NCBI RefSeq assembly: GCF_988243305.1 | Contig: NZ_OZ547136.1 | Direction: 5' to 3' (one strand) | Length of the DNA stretch: 64,000 nucleotides | Shown: in pieces, positions 921 through 63,188 of the stretch | Layout of the letters: every line of letters starts with the position of its first letter | How positions within the stretch are numbered: the stretch's first letter is position 1 | The notes under the pieces: model-generated | Told to the model about the DNA's origin: nothing | Database searches by the model: none | What the model saw: the letters and a program-made list of their open reading frames with translations, nothing else | Made by a program: the position numbers and the translations under genes

Positions 921-2099
921 ATGACGTTATTAGGCACTGCGCTGCGTCCGGCAGCAACTCGCGTGATGTTATTAGGCTCCGGTGAACTGGGTAAAGAAGT
1001 GGCAATCGAGTGTCAGCGTCTCGGCGTAGAAGTGATTGCCGTTGATCGCTATGCCGACGCACCAGCCATGCATGTCGCGCATCGCTCCCATGTCATTAAT
1101 ATGCTTGATGGTGATGCATTACGCCGTGTGGTTGAACTGGAAAAACCACATTATATCGTGCCGGAGATCGAAGCTATTGCCACCGATATGCTGATCCAAC
1201 TTGAAGAGGAAGGACTGAATGTTGTCCCCTGCGCGCGCGCAACGAAATTAACGATGAATCGCGAGGGTATCCGTCGCCTGGCGGCAGAAGAGCTGCAGCT
1301 GCCCACTTCCACTTATCGTTTTGCCGATAACGAAAACCTTTTCCGCAAGGCGGTTGCTGACATCGGCTATCCCTGCATTGTTAAACCGGTGATGAGTTCC
1401 TCCGGCAAGGGGCAGACGTTTATTCGTTCTGCAGAGCAACTTGCTCATGCATGGGAGTACGCTCAGCAAGGCGGTCGCGCCGGAGCGGGCCGCGTAATTG
1501 TTGAAGGCGTCGTTAAGTTTGACTTCGAAATTACCCTGCTAACCGTCAGCGCGGTGGATGGCGTCCATTTCTGTGCACCAGTAGGTCATCGCCAGGAAGA
1601 TGGCGACTACCGTGAATCCTGGCAACCACAGCAAATGAGCCAGCTTGCCCTTGAACGTGCGCAAGAGATTGCCCGTAAAGTGGTGCTGGCACTGGGCGGT
1701 TATGGTCTGTTTGGTGTCGAGCTGTTTGTCTGTGGTGATGAGGTGATTTTCAGTGAGGTCTCCCCTCGTCCACATGATACCGGGATGGTGACGTTAATTT
1801 CTCAGGATCTCTCAGAGTTTGCCCTGCATGTGCGAGCCTTTCTCGGACTTCCGGTTGGCGGGATCCGTCAGTATGGTCCTGCAGCTTCTGCCGTTATCCT
1901 GCCACAACTGACCAGTGAGAATGTCACGTTTGATAATGTGCAGAATGCCGTAGGCGCAGGTTTGCAGATTCGTTTATTTGGTAAGCCGGAAATTGATGGC
2001 AGCCGTCGTCTGGGGGTGGCACTGGCTACTGCAGAGAGTGTTGATGAAGCGATTGATCGCGCAAAGCACGCCGCAGCACAGATAAAAGTACAAGCTTAA
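921..2099 (+). CDS. purT: Phosphoribosylglycinamide formyltransferase 2 (formate-dependent GAR transformylase)
   Basis: 392-aa ORF, ATP-grasp fold, matches remembered PurT. Confidence 0.95.
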
Positions 2100-2119
2100 C
2101 CCCGGCGAAAAACGCTACC

Positions 2120-2148
2120 AAAATGCCCGATCGAGGATCGGGCATTTT
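2120..2148. terminator. Bidirectional intrinsic terminator between purT and eda
   Basis: Perfect hairpin aaaatgcccgatc/gatcgggcatttt flanked by A and T runs, between convergent genes. Confidence 0.6.
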
Positions 2149-2153
2149 GACTT

Positions 2154-2795
2154 TTACAGCTTAGCGCCTTCTACAGCTTCACGCGCCAGCTTAGTAATGC
2201 GGTCGTAATCGCCCGCTTCCAGCGCATCTGCCGGAACCAGCCAGGAGCCACCGATGCACAGCACGCTTTTCAGCGCCAGGTAGTCACGGTAGTTAGCCGG
2301 AGAAATACCACCCGTCGGGCAGAAACGGACCTGGGAGAACGGACCCGCGATTGCCTGCAGGGCTTTCACGCCGCCGTTAGCTTCAGCCGGGAAGAATTTG
2401 AACTCTTTCAAACCGTAGTCCATACCCAGCATCAGTTCGGAAACAGTGCTGATCCCCGGAATCAGAGGAATAGTCCCTTCGGTAGCAGCCTTCAGCAGCG
2501 GCTCGGTCAGACCCGGGCTAATTGCGAACTGTGCACCCGCTTCGGTGACTTCTGCCAGCTGCTGTGGATTCAGCACCGTACCGGCACCCACAATCGCTTC
2601 AGGCACTTCTTTGGCGATAGCACGGATAGCGTCAACTGCACACTCGGTACGCAGAGTCACTTCCAGAACGCGCACCCCACCAGCAACCAACGCTTTTGCC
2701 ATCGGCACCGCGTGTTCCAGTTTTTTTACCACGATAACCGGTACAACCGGGCCGGTGGTCAGGATTGATTCTGCACTTGTTTTCCAGTTTTTCAT
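2154..2795 (-). CDS. eda: KDPG / KHG aldolase
   Basis: 213-aa ORF matching remembered Eda; Entner-Doudoroff operon context. Confidence 0.95.
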
Positions 2796-2831
2796 CAGAG
2801 TTTTCTCTCGCCTGATTACAAATTTGTCGTC

Positions 2832-4643
2832 TTAAAAAGTGATACAGGTTGCGCCCTGTTCGGCACCGGACAGTTTTTCACGCAAGGCGCTGAATAATTC
2901 ACGTCCTGTTCCCACGCGTGACGCGCTCAGGTCAGGAATGTGCGGTTCGCGAGCAGCCAGTTCCGCTTCGTCTACCAGCAGCGTCAGTTCGCCTGTCTGT
3001 CCATTCACACGAATGATGTCCCCGTCGCGCACTTTTGCCAGCAGCCCGCCATCGTAGGCTTCTGGTGTTACGTGGATAGCTGACGGCACTTTACCTGAAG
3101 CGCCGGAGAGTCGTCCATCGGTAACTAACGCAATTTTGAAACACCGGTCCAATAATACACCAAGTGGCGGCATGAGTTTATGTAATTCTGGCATTCCGTT
3201 CGCTTTTGGCCCCTGATGACGGACAACAATGACACAATCGCGGTCCAGCAAACCCGCTTCAAAGGCCGGCATAACGTCATGCTGGCTTTCAAAAACAACC
3301 GCAGGCGCTTCAATCACCTGGTTCTCTACCGGCACGGCAGAGGTTTTCATCACCGCTCGGCCCAGGTTACCGCTTAACACTTTTGTCCCACCATGATGAG
3401 AGAAAGGTTGTTCGAAGGAAGCGATCACATTGTTGTCGAGTGATTTTTCTGCCCCTTCCCGCCAGTCCAGTTCACCATTATTCAGCCATGGTTCAAGGGT
3501 ATAACGAGACAGACCAAAGCCTGCCACCGTATTGACATCTTCATGCAGCAGGCCTGCTTTGAGCAGTTCACGCACCAGAACCGGTACGCCACCTGCCGCC
3601 TGGAAGTGGTTAATATCGGCCGGACCGTTCGGGTAGAGACGTGCCATCAGCGGTACAACATCAGAAAGGTCAGAAAAGTCATCCCAGTTAATCTGAATAC
3701 CGGCCGCGCGTGCCATCGCCACCAGGTGCATGGTGTGGTTAGTGGAACCACCGGTCGCCAGCAGTGCAACGATACCGTTCACCACCACTTTCTCATCGAT
3801 CATCTTACCGATCGGCATCCATTCATTACCATTACCGGTCATGCGTGTAACCTGGCGCGCAGCGGCTGCGGTCAAAGCATCGCGCAGCGGAGAATCCGGA
3901 TGAACAAAAGAAGAGCCTGGCAACTGCATCCCCATAAACTCCACCACCATCTGGTTGGTGTTGGCAGTACCGTAGAAAGTACATGTTCCCGGCGCATGAT
4001 AAGACGCGGCTTCTGACTCCAGTAATGCCATGCGGTCCACTTTACCTTCGGCATAAAGCTGGCGAATACGCACTTTTTCTTTATTTGGCAAACCGCTTGC
4101 CATCGGTCCAGACGGCACAAACACCGCAGGCAAATGCCCAAACGACAGGGCTGCCATCGTCAGACCCGGGACAATCTTGTCGCACACACCGAGGAACAGA
4201 GCACCATCAAACATGTTATGGGACAGCCCCACCGCCGCAGACATCGCAATCACTTCGCGGCTTAACAGCGACAATTCCATTCCATCCTGCCCCTGGGTGA
4301 CACCATCACACATCGCCGGAACACCGCCTGCAACCTGACCAACCGCATTTGCTTCATGCAGGGCTTTACGAATGATTTCTGGATAGTGTTCATAAGGCTG
4401 GTGAGCGGAGAGCATGTCGTTATAGGAGGTGATGATGGCGATATTGTTACGCAACATGCTTTTCAATGAGGCTTTGTCTTCTGGCTGGCAGGCAGCGAAA
4501 CCGTGTGCCAGGTTACCGCATGCCAACTGCGAACGATGAACGGTCGAAGTTTTCGCTTGTTCTATCCGGGCGAGATAAGCAGAGCGAGTCTCGCGCGAAC
4601 GTTCAATGATTCGATTTGTTACGCGTAACAATTGTGGGTTCAT
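2832..4643 (-). CDS. edd: Phosphogluconate dehydratase
   Basis: 603-aa ILVD/EDD-family ORF upstream of eda. Confidence 0.95.
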
Positions 4644-16838: not shown

Positions 16839-16851
16839 TAAGGAGATCCCC

Positions 16852-18060
16852 TCATAATTTCCCCAAAGCGTAACCATGTGTGAATAAATTTTGAGCTAGT
16901 AGGGTTGCAGCCACGAGTAAGTCTTCCCTTGTTATTGTGTAGCCAGAATGCCGCAAAACTTCCATGCCTAAGCGAACTGTTGAGAGTACGTTTCGATTTC
17001 TGACTGTGTTAGCCTGGAAGTGCTTGTCCCAACCTTGTTTCTGAGCATGAACGCCCGCAAGCCAACATGTTAGTTGAAGCATCAGGGCGATTAGCAGCAT
17101 GATATCAAAACGCTCTGAGCTGCTCGTTCGGCTATGGCGTAGGCCTAGTCCGTAGGCAGGACTTTTCAAGTCTCGGAAGGTTTCTTCAATCTGCATTCGC
17201 TTCGAATAGATATTAACAAGTTGTTTGGGTGTTCGAATTTCAACAGGTAAGTTAGTTGCTAGAACCCATGGCTCCTTTGCCGACGCTGAGTAGATTTTAG
17301 GTGACGGGTGGTGACAATGAGTCCGTGTCGAGCGCTGATTTTTTCGGCCTTTAGAGCGAGATTTATACAATAGAATTTGGCATGAGATTGGATTGCTTTT
17401 AGTCAGCCTCTTATAGCCTAAAGTCTTTGAGTGACTAGATGACATATCATGTAAGTTGCTGATAGGTTTCCAGTTTTCCGCTCCTAGGTCTGCATATTGT
17501 ACTTTTCCTCTTACTCGACTTAACCAGTACCAACCCAGCTTCTCAACGGATTTATACCATGGCACTTTAAAGCCAGCATCACTGACAATGAGCGGTGTGG
17601 TGTTACTCGGTAGAATGCTCGCAAGGTCGGCTAGAAATTGGTCATGAGCTTTCTTTGAACATTGCTCTGAAAGCGGGAACGCTTTCTCATAAAGAGTAAC
17701 AGAACGACCGTGTAGTGCGACTGAAGCTCGCAATACCATAAGTCGTTTTTGCTCACGAATATCAGACCAGTCAACAAGTACAATGGGCATCGTATTGCCC
17801 GAACAGATAAAGCTAGCATGCCAACGGTATACAGCGAGTCGCTCTTTGTGGAGGTGACGATTACCTAACAATCGGTCGATTCGTTTGATGTTATGTTTTG
17901 TTCTCGCTTTGGTTGGCAGGTTACGGCCAAGTTCGGTAAGAGTGAGAGTTTTACAGTCAAGTAATGCGTGGCAAGCCAACGTTAAGCTGTTGAGTCGTTT
18001 TAAGTGTAATTCGGGGCAGAATTGGTAAAGAGAGTCGTGTAAAATATCGAGTTCGCACAT
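16852..18060 (-). CDS. IS10 transposase
   Basis: 402-aa ORF (MCELDILHDSLYQFCPELHLKRLNSL...) matching remembered Tn10/IS10 transposase. Confidence 0.9.
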   Translation of the reverse strand: MCELDILHDSLYQFCPELHLKRLNSLTLACHALLDCKTLTLTELGRNLPTKARTKHNIKRIDRLLGNRHLHKERLAVYRWHASFICSGNTMPIVLVDWSDIREQKRLMVLRASVALHGRSVTLYEKAFPLSEQCSKKAHDQFLADLASILPSNTTPLIVSDAGFKVPWYKSVEKLGWYWLSRVRGKVQYADLGAENWKPISNLHDMSSSHSKTLGYKRLTKSNPISCQILLYKSRSKGRKNQRSTRTHCHHPSPKIYSASAKEPWVLATNLPVEIRTPKQLVNIYSKRMQIEETFRDLKSPAYGLGLRHSRTSSSERFDIMLLIALMLQLTCWLAGVHAQKQGWDKHFQANTVRNRNVLSTVRLGMEVLRHSGYTITREDLLVAATLLAQNLFTHGYALGKL

Positions 18061-18122
18061 CTTGTTGTCTGATTATTGATTTTTGGCGAAACCATTTGAT
18101 CATATGACAAGATGTGTATCTA
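18053..18122 (+). ncRNA. Probable IS10 RNA-OUT antisense RNA
   Basis: Placed from known IS10 architecture (antisense RNA overlapping the transposase start, running toward the outside end); not independently verified in sequence. Confidence 0.35.
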
Positions 18123-18167
18123 CCTTAACTTAATGATTTTTACCAAAATCATTAGGGGATTCATCAG

Positions 18168-18176
18168 CGTTTGGTG
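18168..18176. repeat. IS10 target-site duplication, right copy
   Basis: cgtttggtg. Confidence 0.85.
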
Positions 18177-21902: not shown

Positions 21903-22211
21903 GAGATATCCCTTAACTTAGCTGCCGGCGGATGCCCCCTGCTGCGCAGGTGACCAAGTCGCAGCGTTAGCTGTATGTCACAACTGAATGAAAAAAGGCG
22001 GCTATTATACTGGAAATTCTGCCGCACCGTAAGAGCCTGGCCCGCGCTGGAACACCTCGTTACCACTTTATATCGGGCCTGAAATCAGACTCTACGCCAG
22101 TTTGCTATAAAGGTGTTGCCCGAACTCATAAAAATTAACAAAATTTGTCGTTCCGCCATCGGCTAATCGCATTAAGGTGAGAGGCACTATTTTGTTTTGT
22201 CAGGAGTCATC

Positions 22212-22778
22212 ATGCTTGAACTTAATGCTAAAACCACTGCGCTGGTGGTGATTGATTTACAAGAAGGCATCTTACCTTTTGCCGGAGGTCCACATACTGC
22301 CGATGAGGTGGTTAATCGCGCCGGGAAGCTGGCGGCGAAATTTCGCGCGAGCGGTCAGCCCGTGTTTCTGGTGCGCGTTGGCTGGTCTGCCGATTATGCC
22401 GAAGCATTAAAACAGCTGGTTGATGTCCCCTCCCCCGCGAAAGTGTTACCCGAAAACTGGTGGCAACATCCTGCTGCATTAGGTGCAACCGACAGCGATA
22501 TCGAAATCATCAAACGTCAATGGGGTGCGTTTTACGGTACGGATCTGGAGTTGCAACTGCGCCGCCGGGGTATCGATACAATAGTATTATGTGGGATCTC
22601 GACCAATATCGGTGTTGAATCCACCGCCCGCAATGCCTGGGAACTCGGTTTTAATCTGGTGATTGCCGAAGACGCCTGCAGCGCCGCCAGCGCCGAGCAG
22701 CACAATAACAGCATCAACCATATCTACCCACGCATCGCCCGTGTGCGCAGTGTGGAAGAGATCCTCAACGCATTATGA
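22212..22778 (+). CDS. yecD: Isochorismatase-family hydrolase
   Basis: ORF 22197..22778 trimmed to the [17 protein letters not shown] start. Confidence 0.85.
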
Positions 22779-22870
22779 TTTACATCGGTCTGCCGCAATG
22801 GTCGCATCCTAAATGGGTGCGGTTGGGGATCACCAGCCTTGAAGAGTATGCCCGCCACTTTAACTGCGTG
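22775..22870 (+). pseudogene. yecE: 5' fragment of yecE truncated by prophage integration
   Basis: Encodes [32 protein letters not shown], then diverges into AT-rich phage DNA with a stop within a few codons. Confidence 0.7.
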
Positions 22871-22880
22871 ATACGGAATT
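22860..22880. other. Prophage/host junction (bacterial attachment site within yecE)
   Basis: Point where yecE homology ends; exact core not determinable from one junction. Confidence 0.5.
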
Positions 22881-22998
22881 TTTAAAAATCACTAAAGAAC
22901 GCCCAAGAGCATGTTTTTTATTTAGAAGAATCAAAGCGTTGTATTTCCATGTCATATAAAAATCGGCAAAGTTCATATGTAACAAAGTGTCCCAATCA

Positions 22999-23046
22999 TG
23001 CCCCAAAATGCCCCACAACAAATATTTTTGCCCCATGCATGCCCCA
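22999..23046. repeat. Four phased TGCCCCA repeats
   Basis: tgcccca at 22999, 23009, 23029 and 23040, spaced about one or two helical turns. Confidence 0.6.
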
Positions 23047-23067
23047 AAAAATCACTTTCCTTCACCC

Positions 23068-23117
23068 TTGACACTGTTTATCCATACAGTTAAAAATGAT
23101 ACTGTATACAAACACAG
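23068..23117 (+). promoter_or_regulatory. Sigma70-like promoter with two LexA boxes upstream of the dinI-like gene
   Basis: -35 TTGACA (23068-23073), 17-bp spacer, -10 taaaaat (23091-23097); CTGT-N8-ACAG boxes at 23074-23089 and 23102-23117. Confidence 0.6.
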
Positions 23118-23132
23118 TGTAGAGGGACTTTT

Positions 23133-23381
23133 ATGCGTATTGAAATCTGCATAGCCAAAGAAAAAATGACTAAAATGCCAACCGGTGCTGTGGATGCGTT
23201 AAAGGAAGAATTAACTCGGCGCATCAGTAAGCGTTATGACGATGTAGAAGTGATCGTAAAAGCCACCAGCAATGATGGGCTTTCTGTTACACGCACAGCA
23301 GATAAGGATTCTGCAAAAACATTTGTTCAGGAGACTCTGAAAGATACCTGGGAGTCTGCTGACGAGTGGTTTGTTCACTAA
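23133..23381 (+). CDS. DinI-family DNA damage-inducible protein
   Basis: 82-aa ORF, size and sequence character of DinI; SOS boxes upstream. Confidence 0.8.
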
Positions 23382-23448
23382 TAAACACGTAAAATCGGTA
23401 ACGGCTGGAAATCATTCAATACTCGCACTATCGAAAGTTCACCAGCCA

Positions 23449-23495
23449 ACCGCAGCACGTCCTGCATACGTCGTGTCTGCGGTTTTTCTTTTTCG
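23449..23495 (+). terminator. Intrinsic terminator after the dinI-like gene
   Basis: Hairpin ccgcagcacg...cgtgtctgcgg followed by tttttcttttt. Confidence 0.55.
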
Positions 23496-23496
23496 C

Positions 23497-23766
23497 TTAC
23501 ATTGTGTCTGGTTCTTCCGGCCACTCAATATCAGGTGCAGTTGATGTATCAACACGGTTCAGCAACACCCGATATTTATTCCATGCCTCCAGCAACGATC
23601 TTTCTTCCTCCGTTGCGATTTCCAGATCTACAGCATCCTGCAGTGGCGCAATATACTCACTGAATTCCTGGATGTAGAACTGTGTGGTGACGGTCTTCCA
23701 GCCATTCGGCTCCTGCTGTATCGAAGCATACCAGGCTATTTCAATATCGCTATGCTGCGGCAGCAT
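23497..23766 (-). pseudogene. Remnant tail fibre assembly (Tfa-like) gene
   Basis: 89-aa ORF whose last ~50 aa (...[45 protein letters not shown]) duplicate the C-terminus of the tfa at 24546..25130. Confidence 0.65.
23515..23665. repeat. Direct repeat of the tfa 3' end, copy 1
   Basis: About 90% identical over ~150 bp to 24568..24718. Confidence 0.7.
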
Positions 23767-23822
23767 TTAACCCCTTGTAATTCATCGCCATAATTGATTT
23801 AATTCACAAATAAAACTATAAC

Positions 23823-24545: not shown

Positions 24546-25130
24546 TTACTCACTGACAGGGTTCGTAGGCCACTCAATATCAGGTGCAGTTGATGTATCA
24601 ACACGGTTCAGCAACACCCGATACTTCTTCCAGGCTTCCAGCAACGAGTTTTCTTCCTCCGTTGCGATTTCCAGATCTGCAGCATCCTGAAGCGGCGCAA
24701 TATGCTCACTGGCTACCTGCATCAGGTTGTTTTTTGTTTCTTCCGCCTCCCGGATCCGGAACAGTTTTTCTGCTTCCGTATCCTTCACCCAGGCTGTGCC
24801 GTTCCACTTCTGAAACTCCCCTTCCGGCGATAACCAGGTAACATTTTCCGGTAACGGACCGAGTTCAGAAATAAATAACGCGTCGCCGGAAGCCACGTCA
24901 TAAACCGTTTTACCCCGATGGTCTTCAAAGAGATGCCACGATGACTCATCACTGTTGAAAACAGCCACGAAGCCAGCAGGAATATCTGGTGGTGCAATAT
25001 CGGTACTGTTTGCTGGCAGACCTGTATGAGGCGGAATATATGCGTCACCTTCACCAATAAATTCATTAGTTCCGGCCAGCAGATTATAAATTTTTATGGT
25101 CCGTGGTTGTTCACTCATTCTGAATGCCAT
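24546..25130 (-). CDS. tfa: Tail fibre assembly protein
   Basis: 194-aa ORF matching remembered lambda Tfa ([34 protein letters not shown]). Confidence 0.9.
24568..24718. repeat. Direct repeat of the tfa 3' end, copy 2
   Basis: See copy 1. Confidence 0.7.
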
Positions 25131-49686: not shown

Positions 49687-50220
49687 TTATCTGTCGATAC
49701 CCCAGCACGCCAGCGCGCTCTCCTGGTCACGACGGGATACCTGACCGTAGCAGTTGTTTGAACGAATACGGCAGTCTCTGCCACCGTCCTTAATCCACCA
49801 GCGAATCGCCTCACACGCTCCCCTGCGGTCACCAGCATTCAGCCGCTTATAAAACGTCGACGGGAAACACTTACCGGGGCCAATGTTATAGGGACAGAAT
49901 GACGCTATACCCGCTTTCTGTGGTTCGGTCAGTGGAACTTTAATATTGCGCTCCACCCATGCCAGCGCCTTATCCCGTTCAATGGCATTAACCTGGTCGC
50001 ATTTTTCCTTCGACAGTTTCATGCCCGGAATAACAGGTTTACCATCCACCATTGTGGCACCGCGGCAGATGGTCCAGATACCCGCACCATCACGGTATGC
50101 CGTTGTGTGGTTACCTTCTTTTTCATCCAGAAACTGGTCGAGAATATCAGGCGCAGGCGCACCGATGGCAATCAACGCCAGAACGGCAGCCGACAGGCCA
50201 TATTTGATTTTGGTGTTCAT
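49687..50220 (-). CDS. R: Endolysin (lysozyme family) with N-terminal signal-anchor-release-like segment
   Basis: 177-aa ORF; N-terminal weakly hydrophobic Gly/Ala-rich segment (LSAAVLALIAIGAPA). Confidence 0.9.
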   Translation of the reverse strand: MNTKIKYGLSAAVLALIAIGAPAPDILDQFLDEKEGNHTTAYRDGAGIWTICRGATMVDGKPVIPGMKLSKEKCDQVNAIERDKALAWVERNIKVPLTEPQKAGIASFCPYNIGPGKCFPSTFYKRLNAGDRRGACEAIRWWIKDGGRDCRIRSNNCYGQVSRRDQESALACWGIDR

Positions 50221-50348: not shown

Positions 50349-50663
50349 ATGCATAACGATCAACATAATTATGATTTATGCCTGCAAGCCATAAATGAGC
50401 GGGTAAAATCAGAGTGCCTCTTACTCCTCCCACAAGAACACGATGCAGTAAAATCCATTCAGGCTGAGCCGTATGGACATCTCACACCTGTGACTCTCGG
50501 CATTATCGCCAGAGCATTAACACAGCCCATGCTTATGCGTATTAAGACCAATATAAATAACTGGTTGAATGAAGAATTAAGCTACCTTGATTGTGAGTGG
50601 GACAATCATTACGCAAAAACACAAAAAGAACGCATCTTCAGTCGATTATCCAGCAACAGATAA
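50349..50663 (+). CDS. Hypothetical protein (104 aa), antisense to the late operon
   Basis: ORF with GAGGA Shine-Dalgarno 7 nt upstream; AT-rich codon usage; no family recognised. Confidence 0.45.
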   Translation: MHNDQHNYDLCLQAINERVKSECLLLLPQEHDAVKSIQAEPYGHLTPVTLGIIARALTQPMLMRIKTNINNWLNEELSYLDCEWDNHYAKTQKERIFSRLSSNR

Positions 50664-50672
50664 CGAGCCACC

Positions 50673-51479
50673 TTATATACGCCCTTTCAGATAAGTCATC
50701 CCCGGCTGCATCCAGTCAACAGGTGCTTTCTTAAAGGGCGTATTATCAAAATCACGCAGAAGAGCCTCCAGCACAACTGCATCATTGTCAGCACCACTGG
50801 CCATCATTTCAATCTCAGCTGCTACCTGCAGATATCCCATGCAACGACCAATGCGCTTCATCAGCCCCTGCTTTTTATTGTTCTTCAGGTAATCAATGGC
50901 AAATTCAATGAGCGCCTCACTATGCTGGTGCGATGGCGGTGTTAATTTCCCATTTTCTGAGATGGTTATTTTCCCGCCATCTCCGTATACAACAAAGGAT
51001 GGCCGGTTACACTCCCATTCCTGATCTTTATCAGGTGCAGACGCAATAAAATAACGTTTATTTCCTTCCTCTCCGGCACTTTTAACCGTAATGGAGTACT
51101 CAGACTGCAGACAAGACGCCTCTTTTTCTGACCGCAGTGTTGACGGCGGCATCTTCAGAGAACCAGTAATTCTTCCCGGTAGCTTTCCTTTGTAGGTTAT
51201 CAACACATCCTGCGCCTCTAAAATTATGGGGCGCTTTTCCGGCGACAGCTCATCCCCTTCACATAACCCGGCAGCAACATCCAGGAAGACCTGTCTGATG
51301 CTCCTTCTGGCTGCTGCCTCATAAAACTCCAGCGCGGCACCTTCAACACGGTCCAGCGAGATGTCCAGGTCAAAAATTTCACCGTCAAAGCGTTTTTTGT
51401 CCCGTAACGCTAAAGTTACCGTAACTTTATTCTCAAAATTGCGGATCCCTTTCACAATCAGTTCATAGTTTTGAGTCAT
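50673..51479 (-). CDS. Hypothetical protein (268 aa) inserted between holin and endolysin
   Basis: Start is 4 nt after the S stop (GAGTAATTCAATG) with GGGGAGAG Shine-Dalgarno inside the end of S; soluble; no family recognised. Confidence 0.6.
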   Translation of the reverse strand: MTQNYELIVKGIRNFENKVTVTLALRDKKRFDGEIFDLDISLDRVEGAALEFYEAAARRSIRQVFLDVAAGLCEGDELSPEKRPIILEAQDVLITYKGKLPGRITGSLKMPPSTLRSEKEASCLQSEYSITVKSAGEEGNKRYFIASAPDKDQEWECNRPSFVVYGDGGKITISENGKLTPPSHQHSEALIEFAIDYLKNNKKQGLMKRIGRCMGYLQVAAEIEMMASGADNDAVVLEALLRDFDNTPFKKAPVDWMQPGMTYLKGRI

Positions 51480-51483
51480 TGAA

Positions 51484-51699
51484 TTACTCTCCCCGTGCAG
51501 CCTTACGACGGTCCTCTCTGATTTTGAAATACAGGTTAGTCAGATATGTCAGCAGCCCAAACAGCAGACTCCCCAGCACGCCTATTGCCGCCCACTGAGA
51601 CGGGGAAACCCTGTCCAGCAACTGCAGGAACCAGTAGCCCGTTCCCACCGCTGACGTGGTGTATGACACACCTGTTGTGATTTTTTCCATCTGGTACAT
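51484..51699 (-). CDS. S: Holin, phage 21 S-type (pinholin-like), with dual-start motif
   Basis: ORF 51484..51777 trimmed to [10 protein letters not shown]...; two TM segments; C-terminus [19 protein letters not shown]. Confidence 0.85.
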
Positions 51700-51849
51700 A
51701 CCCCGTCTCCCGTTATCCGGAAGCTGACAACAATAAAAAAAGCCACCAGTTAAGTACTGATGGCTCTGATAACTCATGCAGGCATCTCAGACGACCCACT
51801 GACACTACCGGTGAGTTTAACGATACCTTCCATTTGACTGGCTCACTTT

Positions 51850-53703
51850 TTATGATGATGCCGGTGCATTTATCTCCAGCACCAGACTTTCTATCTCAAC
51901 GCCATACGCTGCATTTTTGGTAATATCCGTCAGCGTCAGCGCATTCAGCCCCAGTGTCAGACTGTCTTTTATGACCTGGAATGCCGGGCCAGCCACTCCA
52001 TTCAGTTTCGGAGTAACCGTGGCACTGCCGGCGGTGAACACCAGTTCCAGCGTCTGCCAGTCATTACTGTAATTCCCGAACTCGCCCAACTTTGTGTTTC
52101 CTGCTTTCTTGTGATGCATCAGATTCAGTTTGCCGTCTGTGGTCTGGGTGAAGAACGACATCAGGAACGGGTTACCAGTCCCGGCCATCGCCACGACGTC
52201 AGGTAACGCTACATCGGTATACAGATAAATTCCCAGGCCGAACTGGTTGTTGGTCAGTGCGCCTGACAGTCGAAACTTACAGCTCAGTCTGCCACCCCGT
52301 GTCAGCAGGGAGACTGCGTCATCCACCGGATGCATCAGGGACCAGGTTTTATTGCTCTGCTTGGCGATCTTAAATACACCACCCGACAACTGAATTCCGC
52401 CGTCCTTAATGGTCCAGCCCTGCGCAGCAGCCTCTCCGGCTGTCGGCAACAGGGAGATTGTGCGTACGGATGCATCTTCAGACGGCCCCGATGGCGTGTT
52501 GCCGCCGGGCGAGGGTTTGATTTCCGGTGCCTTACCACTGATGAAAGCTGAGGTGCGCCCGGCTGCGTTCAGAATAGCGGTTGCCATACGATCCGGAATA
52601 ATGCTCCTGCGCGCCCATGAACTGAAATGTGTCGGGCGGTTTGATGATACCTGGTTTCCATTCGTTCTCGATGCCGCACCGTAATATCCTGATGCCGGAA
52701 TATCCGGATCTTCTGCCGGTGCGTTAGTGGCGGTATTGACGCCGTTACCGTCTGTCATGAAGGGCACAAAATAAACGCCCTCACTCTCCCTGTTTTTATA
52801 CCCGCCGTACACGGTGTCGTACTGGGTAGCGTATGTATTTTTCCAGTAATACGTCGTGTCACCACAAATCCACGGCACATTTACAGCACTACCACCATGA
52901 CACTGCGCGTTAAACACAGTGAGGTCAGCACGAAACTGCTTCAGCATGGCTGTAAACAGCGCAGGTTGCTGTGCGTAGGTGGCGGCGTTCATGTCAAACT
53001 CTCCCTGCATCCAGCACACCGCCAGCAACACATTTTTCGGGTTCTTCTGTAATGCAGCTTTAGTGCGCGCAATCAGGTCCTGATATAACGGTTTACCCAC
53101 ACCCCAGCGTGCCGAATCCTGGCTGGCCCCCGCGTCCGCACTGAATGTCCCCTCCGCGCCCTTGGTGAATGCCGAACCACCACGACAGCATGGTACCAGC
53201 AGGATCCCCGCGTTATTCGGGATATACGGGAGCAGTTTTTTGGCAATATGTAAGCCCTGGCCGACACAGCCGTACTGCCCTTTGCTCAGGTCTGCCTTCG
53301 GATGATTCAGCGTACTCATATCCTGCACATCATGCAGACAGTGGTCAGCCGGGATGATGTCGTTATACGTACAACTCTCTCCACCCGGAGTTACCGTGCT
53401 GCGGCGCGCCAGCTGTTTAATGCGCGGATCCGGAGCATCGTAAGAATCCGGTAACGGAAGCCCTTCACCGTAGGCCATGCCGTTGGACTGTCCGGCAAGC
53501 ACAACCACGTAGAACCAGTCCGGCTCAGATGAAGGGCCGACCTGTGGATCTCCTTCAATAGCCACCGCCTGCATCAGTGTGTACGGCGTAATGGCAACCG
53601 GTCCGCCATATGGCTGCCAGCCCTCTTTCAGTTTGTGTGTCAGCTTTTCCGCAAGGTCTGACGGCGACGCCGCCCTGACAACATCATAGTGTTTAAATGC
53701 CAT
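51850..53703 (-). CDS. Prophage sialate O-acetylesterase (NanS-p / YjhS-like)
   Basis: 617-aa ORF in the position this gene holds in Stx-type phages, between the tRNA cluster and S. Confidence 0.8.
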   Translation of the reverse strand: MAFKHYDVVRAASPSDLAEKLTHKLKEGWQPYGGPVAITPYTLMQAVAIEGDPQVGPSSEPDWFYVVVLAGQSNGMAYGEGLPLPDSYDAPDPRIKQLARRSTVTPGGESCTYNDIIPADHCLHDVQDMSTLNHPKADLSKGQYGCVGQGLHIAKKLLPYIPNNAGILLVPCCRGGSAFTKGAEGTFSADAGASQDSARWGVGKPLYQDLIARTKAALQKNPKNVLLAVCWMQGEFDMNAATYAQQPALFTAMLKQFRADLTVFNAQCHGGSAVNVPWICGDTTYYWKNTYATQYDTVYGGYKNRESEGVYFVPFMTDGNGVNTATNAPAEDPDIPASGYYGAASRTNGNQVSSNRPTHFSSWARRSIIPDRMATAILNAAGRTSAFISGKAPEIKPSPGGNTPSGPSEDASVRTISLLPTAGEAAAQGWTIKDGGIQLSGGVFKIAKQSNKTWSLMHPVDDAVSLLTRGGRLSCKFRLSGALTNNQFGLGIYLYTDVALPDVVAMAGTGNPFLMSFFTQTTDGKLNLMHHKKAGNTKLGEFGNYSNDWQTLELVFTAGSATVTPKLNGVAGPAFQVIKDSLTLGLNALTLTDITKNAAYGVEIESLVLEINAPASS

Positions 53704-54192
53704 GAATCCTCCCGGCCGGGATAATATTGTGAGTAAAATGAGGAGCGGGCTGAAGTCCGGAAGTTACAGGACAATGGCAGAAGAGAGACAATAGCCCGCA
53801 ATACGAAAAAGGCCGCGCTATTGCGCAGAGTGATTACTGTCAGATATTATTCGCCAGCTGAAATATTACTTCACGTTTTGTTGTTTATTCCTTGCCGCCC
53901 GCGTCTCCCTGCGCGGGATTTTTTTGTCCATAAGAAAGCCCCTCCGGAGAGGGGCTGGAGAGTGGCGCTATGTGCCATTGCATGGTGCCGGGTGCCTCCC
54001 GGTGAATTCAGTACCAGCACCTGAATCCGCGATTATCCCATATACCTACTCGCTGATTGCCCCTCCGCACAGGGGGATTCACCATGCCAGTTTCTTTTAA
54101 CAAACTCCCCGCAAAACAGACAACTGTCAACCGTCTGAATTGTGAGACATTTAAAAAAAAGGCCCGCAAAAGCGAGCCAGGGAAAATAAGTG

Positions 54193-54269
54193 TGGCGCGT
54201 TGTACTGGATTCGAACCAGTGACCGATTGCTTAGAAGGCAATTGCTCTGTCCGGCTGAGCTAACAACGC
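54193..54269 (-). tRNA. argO: tRNA-Arg (anticodon UCU), argO-like
   Basis: Hand-folded cloverleaf; anticodon loop CTTCTAA; T-arm GGTTCGAATCC; 3' CCA encoded. Confidence 0.8.
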
Positions 54270-54282
54270 AGGGTACAGATAA

Positions 54283-54359
54283 TGGACCGCCATCGAGGAC
54301 TCGAACCCCGCGCAACCAGCTTCGAAGGCTGGCGCTCTATCCTGATGAGCTAATGGCGG
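54283..54359 (-). tRNA. argN: tRNA-Arg (anticodon UCG), argN-like
   Basis: Hand-folded; anticodon loop CTTCGAA; T-arm GGTTCGAGTCC; 3' CCA encoded. Confidence 0.75.
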
Positions 54360-54366
54360 TATGTGA

Positions 54367-54438
54367 TGGTGGCCCTTGCTGGATTTGAACCAGCGACCTG
54401 GCGATTATGAGTCGCTCTCACCACTGAGCTAAAGGGCC
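54367..54438 (-). tRNA. ileZ: tRNA with CAU anticodon (Ile2/Met type), ileZ-like
   Basis: Hand-folded; anticodon loop CTCATAA; T-arm GGTTCAAATCC; short D-loop; 3' CCA encoded. Confidence 0.7.
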
Positions 54439-54600
54439 GGGAGCCGCATAATAACGACGCGTAATTAATTCTTCAATATCATCCGTTCTGGCTGACTAAA
54501 TCCTGTACTTCCCGAACCGTCTGCTCAAAACATTCAGTCTCCAGCTCAACGCCAATTGCACGACGCCCGAGCGCCAGTGCTGCTTTGACGCTACGGACAT

Positions 54601-54629
54601 AAAAAAGCCAGCCACTGGGGGAGGCTGGC
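54601..54629 (-). terminator. Intrinsic terminator upstream of the tRNA cluster
   Basis: gccagcc...ggctggc hairpin followed on the minus strand by TTTTTT. Confidence 0.5.
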
Positions 54630-55263
54630 GAAACTCGTAGAGCAAAAGTGTTGTTACACTAACTTCGTCACAGGGTTATCCTGCAATACTCAAAATACAC
54701 AATATTTACAAAACTAATAGTATACAAGGCGATCTTTAAGATTTTGTTATAAATTATTGCCTTTCTCCTCTTTCCATGAGCTTTCTGGGTAGCCACAGAA
54801 TTCCGGGTACAGAAAAACCCGCTCAGCGGCGGGTTTAAGCTGTGTGACGAAGTAACCACTCTTAACAGCATAACCAATTTTTTACGTACGTAAACCACTA
54901 AATGATATTTGCGAGAATGCTACCGAGTATTGAAAACACCACTACAAATACATAAGCAAATCTCAACAAATAACCAACAAATAATTTCCAGTGTTATTTT
55001 TAGCCGGTTTAAATTGAACCTTCAAATTATAGAGCACTTATAAATAACAGCCGTTAATATAAATTGGCTAATAGATTTATTTTTATTCAGCCAAGAGCCA
55101 TGAATAGGATTCGATAGAAAAAAGTTCAGATAAAAATAGAGATCTACTTCACAAATCAAACGAGAAACCAAAACTAACATCTTGAAATAATCACATTGAT
55201 TAGATGAATATTTATCGCGCAGTGACATCATTTTTTAATAATAGTTCAAAAAAAGGGCTCACG

Positions 55264-56346
55264 ATGAAAAAATTAACAGTGGCAATTTCTGCTGTAGCTG
55301 CATCAGTACTGATGGCGATGTCTGCTCAGGCAGCTGAAATTTATAATAAAGACAGTAACAAGCTGGATCTGTACGGGAAAGTTAATGCTAAGCACTATTT
55401 CTCCTCTAATGATGCAGATGATGGTGATACTACTTATGCCCGTCTTGGCTTCAAAGGTGAAACCCAAATCAACGATCAACTGACTGGTTTCGGTCAGTGG
55501 GAATATGAATTCAAAGGCAACCGCGCTGAATCTCAAGGTTCCTCCAAAGATAAAACCCGTCTTGCCTTCGCTGGCCTGAAATTCGGTGACTACGGCTCAA
55601 TCGATTACGGCCGTAACTACGGTGTAGCATACGACATCGGTGCGTGGACTGACGTTCTGCCAGAATTCGGTGGCGATACCTGGACCCAAACAGATGTGTT
55701 CATGACTGGTCGCACCACTGGTGTTGCAACTTATCGTAACAACGACTTCTTTGGTCTGGTTGATGGTCTGAACTTTGCTGCTCAGTATCAGGGTAAAAAT
55801 GACCGCACTGACGTAACTGAAGCTAATGGTGATGGTTTCGGTTTCTCCACTACTTATGAGTATGAAGGATTCGGTGTAGGTGCAACCTATGCTAAATCTG
55901 ACCGCACTAATAATCAGGTTATCTACGGTAACAACAGCCTGAATGCATCTGGTCAAAATGCTGAAGTATGGGCAGCTGGTCTGAAATATGATGCGAACAA
56001 CATCTATCTGGCTACCACCTATTCTGAAACCCAGAACATGACTGTTTTTGGTAATAACCATATTGCCAACAAAGCACAAAACTTCGAAGTAGTTGCACAA
56101 TATCAGTTCGACTTCGGTCTGCGTCCGTCCGTTGCTTACCTGCAATCTAAAGGAAAAGACTTGGGTGCGTGGGGTGATCAGGACCTGGTTGAATATATTG
56201 ATGTAGGTGCAACCTATTACTTCAACAAAAATATGTCCACTTTTGTTGATTACAAAATCAACCTGATTGATAAGAGCGATTTCACGAAAGCATCTGGCGT
56301 TGCTACCGATGATATCGTTGCTGTAGGTATGGTTTACCAGTTCTAA
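55264..56346 (+). CDS. Prophage-encoded OmpC/OmpF-family porin (NmpC/Lc-like)
   Basis: ORF 55204..56346 trimmed to the [23 protein letters not shown] signal peptide; ends in ...VGMVYQF; opposite strand to the late operon. Confidence 0.9.
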
Positions 56347-56482
56347 TTTGATTACTAAAAGATATGTTGCGGGAGGCTTTGCCTCCCCAACATATAAGTG
56401 GCTCCCTCAAGCCACTTCCTTTAGGAGCACAACCTTGCTTCTAACTATATAAACCTTCTGTTATATATTACCCTTTATTTTT

Positions 56483-56510
56483 GGGGGCGTTGCAACGCCC
56501 CATTTTTAAT
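56483..56510 (+). terminator. Intrinsic terminator after the porin gene
   Basis: gggggcgttgcaacgcccc followed by atttttaataatttt. Confidence 0.55.
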
Positions 56511-56534
56511 AATTTTTAGTAAACAATTGGCATA

Positions 56535-56918
56535 TTAATTAGAGTTATTAACAACGATATCCATCTCTAACCGGATATCTAATGCCATTAACATCCCTTC
56601 AATTATGCCCTCAGCCTTCTGTAACCTTTTCCCGATATAACCATCAGAGCAGCAATGCTTACCTGCCAGTGACATGAATGTCATACCGACTACATAATAA
56701 TCTACTAATAAATCGTGCAAATCGCTGTTGTTCTTTTTCAGACGGGCCATGCACCCGCAAATAATCATCGCGTCATCGTCACAACATTGCGGGCGAGATT
56801 TTACTTTTGAAGTAATTAATCCCTTAAAACCGGCGGCAATGGACGACCAGGTCACATCTTCATGATTATTAGCCGCCCACGCTCCCCAGCGTTCGAGAAC
56901 CATCTGAATATCACGCAT
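56535..56918 (-). CDS. Q: Late gene antiterminator Q (QuuD-like)
   Basis: ORF 56535..56933 trimmed to [22 protein letters not shown]...; Cys-rich zinc-binding region. Confidence 0.85.
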
Positions 56919-56935
56919 CAACTTTCTCCACAAAA

Positions 56936-62780: not shown

Positions 62781-63188
62781 GATGGCAGCCTCCGTTGACT
62801 GTGGAAAACTTCCACCACCGGAGCTGCGAAACTCACTGGTGGCAGACTGAACAGGGTTCGCAGTACCGGCGTCAACGGAGACCGGCGAGCCTTTCGGCTC
62901 CCCTGCCCAGCCCACCATAATTCTGGCGTGCGTGAGCGCGGACGATAAAAAAGACGCTGGCGCGTCATATATCGCCGTTGACAATTCCGGGCTGCGACCC
63001 CCGGCACCCGCTTTATAAGGTGCAGAGACAGTGTAACGTCCCGAAATTGCAGAATCAATATTTGGTCTTGAAATGATCATATAGCTGCTGATATCTTTAG
63101 AACTGTTCTTGGATGTTTCGGAGCCGTTTTATGCGAAACAGCTCCCCGTTATTGATGTTGAGTGAGCCGGGTTACTCCCGGCTTTTTT

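Follow-up and report, generated by a model that had tools for sequence, protein, structure and literature searches.

Stx2-type phages such as 933W and Sakai Sp5 carry their toxin genes within a late region of the order Q-pR'-ileZ-argN-argO-stx2AB-STnc100/EcOnc27-AsxR-nanS-p-S-R. The DNA analysed here, a single stretch of 64,000 nucleotides (the window), contains a prophage with much of this order, in which an earlier note had described the place of the toxin genes as empty. This locus raises three questions: whether stx is indeed absent, what lies in its place, and whether the prophage lost the toxin genes or never had them.

Gene order of the late region

From Q to the lysozyme gene, the features used in the comparison are:

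56535..56933, minus strand: antiterminator Q gene of the QuuD/933W-Q family (PHROG 79 'anti-termination protein Q-like', E 4.7e-53)
55204..56346, plus strand: OmpC-family porin gene, placed after Q and before the late leader (NCBIfam 'porin OmpC', 518 bits, cut-off 484)
54598..54895, minus strand: 933W-like late-operon leader (blastn and base-by-base alignment to annotated 933W)
54448..54476, minus strand: promoter-like site 5' of the tRNA cluster, homologous to pT of 933W (TTGAAG-17-TATTAT, 9/12 matches)
54367..54438, minus strand: tRNA with anticodon CAU, ileZ-type, with a 4-nt deletion in the D/anticodon stem (ARAGORN, Rfam)
54283..54359, minus strand: tRNA-Arg (UCG), argN-type (ARAGORN, Rfam; 74/77 nt identical to 933W argN)
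54193..54269, minus strand: tRNA-Arg (UCU), argO-type (ARAGORN, Rfam 70.1 bits; 76/77 nt identical to 933W argO)
54153..54178, minus strand: intrinsic terminator of the tRNA cluster (GGCTCGC-TTTT-GCGGGCC then T8, terminator scan)
51850..53703, minus strand: NanS-p-type sialate O-acetylesterase gene, 617 aa (Pfam DUF1737, SASA and DUF6645)
51484..51699, minus strand: class II holin S (PHROG holin, E 2.4e-40; RefSeq 'class II holin' in the O111:H21 locus)
49687..50220, minus strand: endolysin R, a lysozyme (ORF; lysozyme in the annotation of homologous loci; weak NCBIfam endolysin match)

ARAGORN, run over the 64-kb window, located exactly three tRNAs, all on the minus strand, and the Rfam tRNA model confirmed each of them. 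The CAU tRNA, named Met by ARAGORN and tRNA-Ile (ileZ) by the 933W annotation and RefSeq, lacks GAGC relative to 933W ileZ and is otherwise identical to it; this 72-nt copy scores 58.2 bits with the Rfam model, and those of 933W and Nil3 score 72.5. The promoter-like site at 54448-54476 aligns with the 933W 'pT putative tRNA promoter', and the terminator of the cluster (fold energy -13.8 kcal/mol, z -3.7) corresponds by homology to the 'terminator upstream of the stx genes' of 933W.

From the leader to this terminator, blastn aligned window 54895..54152 with 933W locus 1666..2412 at 87% identity. The leader itself (54598-54895) comprises the last bases of a Q gene, a stretch homologous to pR'/qut, the tR' hairpin at ~54833-54812 and a second terminator at ~54628-54598; going by the 933W annotation, these elements would act as pR', qut and terminators. 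The Q protein shares 78% amino-acid identity with 933W Q, and its gene is annotated quuD in the O111:H21 locus, which is 98-99% identical. Two features of Stx2-type late regions are present here, namely the ileZ-argN-argO trio (CAU, UCG, UCU) detected with ARAGORN and Rfam and, judged by sequence, a 933W-type pR'/qut/tR' leader with a Q of the 933W/H-19B family (87% nt, 78% aa). Beyond the tRNAs, 933W and the window share an STnc100-family sRNA, a NanS-p-type esterase (53% identity over the full length; 'SASA family carbohydrate esterase' in homologous loci), a holin and a lysozyme. For the two ORFs between holin and lysozyme, PADLOC and NCBIfam gave no function.

A methyltransferase remnant and the opposite-strand porin gene lie between Q (56535-56933) and the tRNAs, and both were missing from the layout given in the earlier note. 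The annotation of the O111:H21 15A locus names this porin ompC and that of PhiR phages 'OmpD', and it is annotated in phage Perceval as well; in 933W, no porin gene stands between Q and pR'. Late regions of the DLP12 and PA-2 type presumably resemble the window in this respect, with a porin gene (nmpC or lc) following a QuuD-type Q; these elements are not known to have the tRNA trio or the nanS-p module.

The proposed likeness to Stx2 phages in the order of Q, the CAU/UCG/UCU trio, esterase, S and R was thus borne out (ARAGORN, Rfam, Pfam and comparison with 933W), and the distance between the last tRNA and the esterase gene, estimated at ~490 bp, is 489 bp (54192-53704). The span originally singled out, 53704-54440, takes in the tRNAs themselves.

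The unoccupied stx2 site

Searches of the whole window with Stx1A/B and Stx2A/B by tblastn (E up to 100, word 2) returned noise, with a best E of 0.56 and nothing meaningful in the interval, and blastn with the two stx cassettes as queries (word size 7) yielded only chance matches of 13-31 nt, outside the interval. Homology to 933W stops at window 54152 (933W locus 2412) and restarts at 54149 (933W locus 3745), so that the 1,332 bp which in 933W carry stx2A and stx2B between the terminator and STnc100 are exactly absent. Comparison with the Stx2a phage EC3283 gave the same breakpoints. The site is:

54150..54151, no strand: unoccupied stx2 site, location of the 1,332-bp stx2A-stx2B cassette in Stx2 phages (933W and EC3283 breakpoints)

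Judged by tblastn, by blastn and by the abutting flanks, the stxA and stxB genes that mark a Stx-converting phage between the tRNA cluster and nanS-p are missing. The earlier statement that there are no A- or B-subunit genes was correct, and precisely the position at which 933W and other Stx2a phages have stx2AB is vacant here. The moron site has been described as lying 3' of pR' and containing convergent sRNAs (PMC4104026). The stx2 insertion point is real and precisely definable, and 'unoccupied moron site' is an accurate label for it.

A deletion scar, which the earlier note had proposed to seek by alignment with Stx phage late regions, was not found; junction sequence and flank alleles speak for the standard stx-free allele. 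The 9 nt preceding the conserved TCACAATTCAG are TTAAATGTC in the window, a motif of the stx-free type that resembles TTAAAT[GA]C[CT] of unrelated stx-free contexts and of the Stx1 phage, whereas Stx2 phages carry GTAATCTGTG at this position. The first 140 bp to the right of the junction (54149-54010) are 98-100% identical to stx-free loci, as against ~60% (global) or 76-86% (local) to Stx2-adjacent alleles, sampled from ~170 Stx2 phage records and 5426 genomes. Both ends of the 933W cassette and the window junction share an A/T-rich similarity of a few bases (A-T-(C)-T-G).

A Stx2 prophage with the window-type allele was sought in the 5426 genomes with a chimeric probe made of the stx2B 3' end and the window's right flank. 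It matched 532 genomes, all with other alleles, the best at 91.8% overall, and two matches inspected closely had ~86% identity in the window half; because megablast did bridge diverged alleles, only the identities and not the count of 532 are diagnostic.

Further from the junction the picture differs, and the interval is a mosaic: over its distal ~300 bp it matches the Sakai Stx1 phage at 97-100% identity, over its proximal 140 bp it does not. Window 54009-53704 (306 bp, comprising the 3' half of STnc100, the antisense element described below and the esterase leader) is 97.7% identical to the Sakai/Morioka Stx1 phages (Sp15, NC_004913) and 94% to Stx2a phages. The tRNA trio is missing from Sp15; there, stx1AB stretches from the leader to a point ~60 nt upstream of the STnc100 anchor, and STnc100 has another allele in its proximal half.

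Two convergent small-RNA genes in the gap

The gap had been said to contain only hairpins and short ORFs. This description did not hold, as about 385 of the 489 bp are taken up by a convergent pair of sRNA genes, which Hfq studies of EHEC and EPEC had already recorded, and the tRNA-operon terminator. The further features of the gap are:

53926..54116, minus strand (that of the late operon): STnc100-family sRNA gene, homologue of EcOnc05/EcOnc27 (Rfam RF02076)
53744..53925, plus strand: convergent antisense sRNA of the EcOnc08/EcOnc21/EcOnc42 family, the EPEC 'E2348C_1409.E2348C_1408.IGR' (homology, terminator scan; 5' end approximate)
53806..53828, minus strand: third terminator-like hairpin, ~100 nt upstream of the esterase start (CTGCGC-AATA-GCGCGG then CCTTTTTCGT, terminator scan)

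The sense element matches STnc100 (RF02076) over model positions 1-206 of 206 with 139.2 bits (gathering score 47, E 1e-32), and has its own terminator at 53956-53937. Members of this family sit just 3' of stx2B in 933W and just 3' of stx1B in the Stx1 phage. Hfq-bound homologues are EcOnc05 (~222 nt, northern blot) in the Sp4 gap and EcOnc27 in Sp5, and the Sakai Sp4 Hfq-CRAC peak of EcOnc05 maps to window 54055-53947; by homology, the window element would likewise be an Hfq-associated transcript. On the minus strand at 54117-54160, inspection by eye and a consensus scan revealed no convincing sigma-70 site. PasD was considered as another identity of the sense element: PasD2 of E2348/69 matches 42 nt at 79%, within the conserved STnc100 core (54087-54048). 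From these matches we class the element as STnc100/EcOnc05 type, not PasD type. PasA of E2348/69 has no match in the window, and a reading of the hairpin at 51767-51739 as a PasA-like sRNA marker is for that reason unsupported.

The antisense element was identified from the EPEC RIL-seq supplement and from Sakai Sp4. The E2348/69 RIL-seq sRNA at 1444797-1444978 corresponds to window 53925-53744 with 98.3% identity, and within the window the Sp4 Hfq-CRAC peak of EcOnc08 falls on 53851-53923 and that of EcOnc21 on 53760-53845. The terminator scan placed its terminator at 53898-53917, followed by T7, and the consensus scan a plus-strand promoter-like site at 53697-53725. Both sRNA promoters are only weakly predicted, and the 5' ends are carried over from homologues. 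In position the element resembles AsxR/AgvB, as its plus-strand terminator (53898-53925) abuts the STnc100 end at 53926, a geometry likewise seen in 933W (STnc100 at 3778-3983, AsxR at 3985-4037). In sequence it is unrelated to AsxR, the antisense sRNA of 933W: the models RF02703 and RF02702 gave zero matches up to E 10 on 551 bp, as against 88 bits in 933W, and pairwise alignment to 933W AsxR yielded just a 10-nt terminator fragment. For Sp15, the EcOnc list of Tree et al. does not include the antisense element; EcOnc15 there lies upstream of stx1A. The third hairpin, at 53806-53828, has a fold energy of -9.1 kcal/mol (z -1.9). The interval should be annotated as a terminator and two convergent Hfq-type sRNA genes, not as spacer or hypothetical ORFs. 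The 5' variable region of the window STnc100 allele and its antisense partner may have host targets other than those of the Stx-phage alleles.

Put together, the module runs from Q through the opposite-strand porin, the 933W-like pR'/tR' leader, the tRNA promoter, three tRNAs, terminator and convergent sRNA pair to nanS-p, holin and lysozyme, and Stx2 phages have the same module plus a 1.33-kb stx2AB 'moron', which sits exactly where the tRNA terminator gives way to the STnc100 gene. By analogy with 933W and lambda biology, pR' transcripts would halt at tR' in a lysogen, where the tRNAs and both sRNAs would be transcribed from their own promoters. Upon induction, Q-modified polymerase would be expected to pass all three terminators of the sense strand that lie within or near the gap, leading to expression of nanS-p and the lysis genes. 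Expression of the late region and its dependence on Q are read across from these relatives, and since the CAU tRNA is damaged and Q is cut off from the leader by the porin gene, the late operon may no longer be functional.

Related loci and the origin of the stx-free arrangement

The closest described counterpart is Sakai Sp4, a non-Stx, lambda-like prophage. Between its ileZ1-argN1-argO1 genes and ECs_1088 lies a gap of equal length (489 bp) with 98.8% identity to the window, and identity over 846 bp (tRNAs, gap and esterase 5' end) is 97.8%. Sp4 shares with the window the tRNA trio, the position of the esterase and, inside the gap, EcOnc05 in sense and EcOnc08/EcOnc21 in antisense orientation. 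It differs in its intact ileZ of 76 nt (the window copy is 4 nt short), in its integration site, and upstream of the tRNAs, where genes for an AraC-family regulator and a CAAX protease stand in Sp4 in place of the Q, porin and methyltransferase remnant of the window. Nil3 (AM051322; O157:H7, cattle, Egypt), a partial record of 6.3 kb that ends within the gap, shares with the window the tRNA trio and, after it, the junction and the gap (98.6% identity), with no stx annotated; its ileZ is intact, and its Q-to-tRNA region is different and without porin. In the prophage of O111:H21 strain 15A (CP077477), the whole region from Q through porin, tRNAs, gap and esterase to S and R is 98.3-99.5% identical to the window, including the 4-nt tRNA deletion. 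That locus lies in another chromosomal place, and its holin gene is followed by a truncated YdfR gene.

Among 5426 complete E. coli genomes, 1041 have the same contiguous junction, some of them O157:H7 strains that contain Stx phages in addition, and 532 have stx2B next to an STnc100 allele; the two counts come from two different probes. Fragments of the module reach up to 18 copies per E. coli genome. In the phage collection the junction is contiguous only in Nil3, PhiR49_2 and vB_EcoS-611R1, where stx2 therefore cannot occupy the site. The Sepvirinae phages phi296 and PPwrbA_EH2201 have a second stx-free junction form (75 nt), and STnc100 occurs in late regions without tRNAs or esterase as well (MS6198, PhiR5_1). 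The slot is thus empty in that stx does not occupy it, but the arrangement, present in about one fifth of complete E. coli genomes, is ordinary and already known, and its sRNA genes have been described before.

The earlier idea of a toxin-negative relative of Stx phages applies to the late-leader module only. Unlike 933W, which belongs to the Sepvirinae, the prophage has head and packaging genes of the lambda type (A/B/Nu3/E head genes; PhiR29_1, mEp332-like), with PhiR29_1, mEp332 and Kati as the best matches to window 39001-64000 and no phage record spanning at least 80% of that query; the porin gene between Q and the leader is a further difference. With its Q, holin, endolysin and DUF1737-SASA esterase and no toxin genes, it has the features of a non-Stx lambdoid nanS-p prophage of the Sp4 type. 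nanS-p occurs in Stx and non-Stx prophages alike (PMC8065619). The prophage is integrated at yecD|yecE, i.e. in yecE of the E. coli chromosome, and is read on the minus strand; its right end, with int and the immunity region, lies beyond the window.

We conclude with high confidence that 53704-54440 is the tRNA-to-esterase part of the late leader of a non-Stx lambdoid prophage, whose stx2 site is unoccupied and has stx-free-type sequence, and which most likely never carried stx here or received a stx-free allele by recombination, without deletion. The wording 'lost or never acquired' of the earlier note covers this outcome. Descent from a Stx2-converting phage from which a (near-)precise deletion removed stx2AB, joining tRNA terminator and STnc100 gene, would account for the presence of both cassette flanks side by side, and the A/T-rich microhomology shared by the junction and the 933W cassette ends could fit an old illegitimate recombination. 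We nevertheless regard it as highly improbable: the scarless junction has TTAAATGTC and not the Stx2-type GTAATCTGTG, the adjoining 140 bp are at most 86% identical to all Stx2-adjacent alleles sampled and 98-100% to stx-free loci, and these two properties favour 'never acquired' over deletion. Moreover, independent deletions would not repeat the single breakpoint common to 1041 genomes, a second stx-free form exists in phi296 and PPwrbA_EH2201, and the structural backbone is lambda-type, not Stx-phage-type.

Scarless loss is a different matter. An ancestor with stx could have had its whole tRNA-sRNA-esterase segment swapped by recombination with a co-resident stx-free lambdoid prophage, and in alignments such a replacement would look the same as never having acquired stx, the interval being visibly mosaic (54009-53704 like Stx1/Stx2a phages, 54149-54010 not). 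The many partial module copies per genome offer ample recombination partners, and yecE is a known Stx-phage integration site (PMC8065619), with phage records named after it that include the Stx2a phage Stx2_12E129_yecE and PPyecE_EH1910, whose name is without stx. We still consider this history unlikely, as no stx remnant is present in the window, the lambda-type backbone is unlike that of the sampled yecE Stx2 phages, and the idea adds a needless step that a single window could not falsify. It is, by comparison, fairly probable that the 'slot' is an artefact of the comparison, the tRNA-sRNA-esterase module being a generic lambdoid late leader that lacks nothing, with Stx phages as the exception. 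The predominance of the contiguous junction over stx2B beside an STnc100 allele (1041 against 532 genomes, with two different probes), the arrangement of Sp4, the similar organisation reported by Tree et al. for Sakai Sp3, 4, 9, 10, 11 and 17, and STnc100 in the late regions of MS6198 and PhiR5_1 all agree with it. However, it restates our preferred explanation of a non-Stx lambdoid leader more than it rivals it, and the insertion point used by stx2 is still real. More tentatively, the window-type junction (the T-run of the tRNA terminator with TTAAATGTC-TCACAATTCAG) might be the ancestral acceptor allele for insertion of the stx2AB moron, which we hold possible but doubtful; if so, comparison of stx-free and stx-bearing alleles could rebuild the insertion event and its mechanism.

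Beyond correct annotation the importance of the locus is small. Its practical lesson is that a late region which resembles that of Stx phages in having Q, ileZ-argN-argO, nanS-p, S and R should not be taken as evidence for a toxin phage, because the stx-free form is found in more genomes than the Stx2-occupied one by the two probes above and coexists with Stx phages in O157:H7. Lambdoid phages are mosaic, and a prophage with Stx2-phage-like flanks could in principle swap the module by recombination. Of relevance to surveillance, the prophage described here shares with Stx2 phages both its integration site in yecE and the flanks of the stx2 site.

Gene order of the late region

The earlier note had described an Stx2-type order of Q, three tRNA genes, a NanS-p esterase, S and R, with a gap of about 490 bp between the last tRNA and the esterase gene. 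ARAGORN, Rfam and Pfam bear out this layout, and the gap, 54192-53704, measures 489 bp. Over the 64-kb window ARAGORN reports three tRNA genes, each of them minus-strand and each confirmed by the Rfam tRNA model. The description omitted an opposite-strand porin gene and a methyltransferase remnant between Q and the tRNAs.

Features of the late region
56535-56933, minus strand: Q gene, 78% identical to Q of 933W, the Stx2a reference phage
55204-56346, plus strand: porin gene of the OmpC family, intervening between Q and the tRNAs; NCBIfam OmpC match of 518 bits
54483-54596, minus strand: remnant of a gene for a site-specific DNA methyltransferase (C-terminal fragment), immediately upstream of the tRNA promoter
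54367-54438, minus strand: tRNA, anticodon CAU, ileZ-type (ARAGORN, Rfam)
54283-54359, minus strand: tRNA, anticodon UCG (ARAGORN, Rfam)
54193-54269, minus strand: tRNA, anticodon UCU (ARAGORN, Rfam)
51850-53703, minus strand: esterase gene, 617 aa, the next minus-strand gene after the tRNAs
51739-51767, minus strand: terminator-like element, a 12-bp hairpin then a T-run, between esterase stop (51850) and holin start (51699)
51484-51699, minus strand: class II holin, downstream of the esterase
within 50349-51479, minus strand: ORF of 268 aa, PHROGs 1085/2091/406, YdfR-like N-terminus
within 50349-51479, plus strand: ORF of 104 aa, PHROG 1853
49687-50220, minus strand: lysozyme, after the holin and two intervening ORFs

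The esterase carries Pfam domains DUF1737, SASA and DUF6645 and shares 53% full-length identity with the 933W esterase, indicating a NanS-p-type sialate O-acetylesterase. The porin gene, with flanks at 54896-56534, separates Q from a 933W-like pR' leader, and Q thus lies ~1.6 kb from its presumed target promoter. Porin-bearing lambdoid phages (the PhiR series, ‘OmpD’, and Perceval) have a similar Q-porin-leader layout. A 13-nt leftover of a second Q 3' end is found at ~54895, just before the leader, and the methylase is full-length at the remnant's position in several Stx2 and non-Stx relatives. The CAU tRNA is 72 nt long instead of 76, one GAGC repeat unit being deleted; the anticodon stem thereby loses its 5' side, the Rfam score is down from 72.5 to 58.2 bits, and the tRNA is probably non-functional. 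The E. coli O111:H21 15A prophage shares this deletion, which is absent from 933W, Nil3 and Sakai Sp4. The two ORFs between holin and lysozyme had no match in PADLOC or NCBIfam; annotation of the O111:H21 relative has a truncated YdfR gene as the counterpart of the 268-aa ORF. The hairpin at 51739-51767 is not PasA, the E2348/69 PasA sequence having no match in the window.

The stx position and its history

Searches of the whole window by tblastn (Stx1A/B and Stx2A/B) and blastn (both stx cassettes) returned chance-level matches only, and the claim that the gap holds no A- or B-subunit genes therefore stands. Aligning the late region with those of reference Stx phages, as the earlier note had proposed, gave sharp breakpoints with the stx2AB position unoccupied. 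By blastn, window 54895..54152 corresponds to 1666..2412 of the 933W locus, a block with pR', qut and tR', the promoter and genes of the three tRNAs, and the terminator that the 933W annotation places ‘upstream of the stx genes’, while window 54149..53979 corresponds to 933W 3745..3926. The 1,332 bp between them (933W 2413-3744), which have no window counterpart, hold stx2A (2463-3422) and stx2B (3434-3703); in the window, the flanks are 2 bases apart (54150-54151). Both breakpoints are identical in the comparison with EC3283, a second Stx2a phage. In the Stx1 phage the tRNAs are absent and stx1AB stands in place of window 54591-54088.

We consider it likely that stx was never acquired at this junction in this lineage. 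Ahead of the conserved TCACAATTCAG, the window has the nine bases TTAAATGTC; the corresponding bases are TTAAAT[GA]C[CT] in unrelated stx-free contexts (phi296/PPwrbA_EH2201, PhiR5_1, MS6198), TTAAATACA in the Stx1 phage and GTAATCTGTG in all four Stx2 loci examined. The junction is thus of the stx-free type and carries no residue of the stx2 cassette end, which argues against a deletion of stx2 at this site. So does the adjoining sequence: over the first 140 bp beyond the junction on its right, identity is 98-100% with stx-free loci, as against ~60% (global) or 76-86% (local) with Stx2-adjacent alleles, and a chimeric probe joining the stx2B 3' end to the window right flank detected no window-type allele next to stx2B in the 5426 genomes, its best match having 91.8% identity over the whole probe and 86% over the part taken from the window. 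Moreover, a single breakpoint is common to about a thousand genomes, and Sepvirinae phages have a second stx-free form, with 75 nt rather than 48 nt between argO and the STnc100 anchor, a pattern that independent deletions would not produce. Together, these results make deletion very improbable. Because the gap is a mosaic, its distal 306 bp sharing 97.7% identity with Stx1 phages, loss of stx through scarless replacement by recombination stays a candidate, one that we regard as unlikely.

RNA elements of the 489-bp gap

The gap is not mere spacer. Said earlier to contain only hairpins and short ORFs, it holds terminators, an STnc100 sRNA and an antisense sRNA homologue, as identified by terminator scan, Rfam and a match to EPEC RIL-seq data.

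RNA elements between argO and the esterase gene
54178-54161 followed by T8, minus strand: strong intrinsic terminator after argO (-13.8 kcal/mol, z -3.7)
53926-54116, minus strand: full-length STnc100-family sRNA (Rfam 139 bits vs gathering score 47, E 1e-32)
53898-53917 followed by T7, plus strand: terminator of the antisense element, abutting the STnc100 3' end
53828-53813, minus strand: third sense-strand terminator (terminator scan, fold energy)

Five terminator-like sites were observed in 53600-55000, against 1.5 ± 1.1 expected from shuffles. The short ORFs overlap the sRNA elements, and RefSeq homologues annotate such ORFs as pseudogene fragments only. Rfam places the STnc100 family directly 3' of stx2B in 933W and EC3283; the Stx1 phage has it 3' of stx1B, and the stx-free loci of Nil3 and O111:H21 15A have it as well. 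The antisense element matches the EPEC E2348/69 RIL-seq sRNA ‘E2348C_1409.E2348C_1408.IGR’ (NC_011601 1444797-1444978; window 53925-53744, 98.3% identity), which its authors equate with EHEC EcOnc08/21/42, and a promoter-like site at 53697-53725 (plus strand) fits it in position. At the corresponding position 933W has the anti-sRNA AsxR; an identity with AsxR/AgvB was rejected, the sequences being unrelated. In E2348/69 prophage PP6 (NC_011601 1443000-1444650), ISEc13 interrupts the STnc100-type sRNA gene, and the antisense sRNA and esterase are intact.

While anatomy, homologies, breakpoints and prevalence were observed directly, the working of the region can be proposed from 933W and lambda biology (933W annotation, PMC4104026, PMC8065619). 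In the lysogen, tR' would end transcripts started at pR'; pT would drive the tRNAs, and two sRNAs, each from its own promoter, would act on host targets via Hfq. Upon induction, Q-modified RNA polymerase would pass the terminators at 54178-54153, 53956-53937 and 53828-53806 and reach nanS-p, S and R. Equivalent read-through in Stx2 phages would reach stx2AB, the corresponding position being unoccupied in the window.

Relatives and chromosomal setting

The arrangement is already published and very common. In Sp4, a non-Stx lambda-like prophage of O157:H7 Sakai, the gap from ileZ1-argN1-argO1 to ECs_1088 is of equal length and identical to that of the window at 483 of 489 positions. Tree et al. 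reported Hfq-bound sRNAs there (PMC4104026): the EcOnc05 peak (sense, ~222 nt) maps to window 54055-53947 and the antisense peaks EcOnc08 and EcOnc21, jointly an RNA of ~271 nt (PMC4104026), to 53851-53923 and 53760-53845, respectively. In that study, the stretch 3' of pR' is presented as a ‘moron’ insertion site with convergent sRNAs, exemplified by stx2 in Sp5 (PMC4104026). Of 5426 complete E. coli genomes, 1041, many O157:H7 strains among them, match a 211-bp junction probe (54050-54260) without a break; in Stx2 phages the match stops at the predicted base. Among the phages of the collection, only Nil3 (98.6%; a partial, 6.3-kb record in which no stx is annotated), PhiR49_2 and vB_EcoS-611R1 have the junction uninterrupted, and no stx2 is therefore possible at that site in these phages. 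The best whole-region match is the O111:H21 15A prophage (98.3-99.5%), and nanS-p genes occur in Stx and non-Stx prophages alike (PMC8065619).

The structural genes are lambda-type, with best matches to PhiR29_1, mEp332 and Kati. The prophage, described earlier as a toxin-negative relative of Stx phages, is thus a relative only in the mosaic sense: the late-leader module is common to both, the structural backbone is not. The earlier interpretation is right in substance, but the gap is less empty, and the relationship to Stx phages less close, than it states.

The chromosome left of the prophage is that of E. coli (ruvB-ruvA-yebB-ruvC-yebC-nudB-aspS-yecD). The gene yecE is interrupted: at ~22000-23800 the tail-fibre end adjoins yecD and a truncated yecE, which places the integration in yecE, where Stx phages integrate as well (PMC8065619). 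In the homologous locus, genes for a DinI-like protein and a SAM-dependent methyltransferase are located close to the tail-fibre end. An IS10-type element (~16842-18170), which the reference E. coli layout does not have, lies between yebB and ruvC. In the early region, C4 and isrK form a P1/P7-type antirepressor-control module present in some lambdoid and Gifsy-type prophages.

Further elements in the window
16852-18060, minus strand: IS4-family transposase ORF, 402 aa, of the IS10-type element
18053-18122, plus strand: RNA-OUT of the IS10-type element (Rfam, 99.5 bits)
24589-24787, minus strand: Rfam match (224 bits) to family IS009, in the region of the tail-fibre assembly gene
62835-63023, minus strand: adjacent Rfam matches to C4 antisense RNA and isrK, at 78.8 and 58.7 bits, respectively
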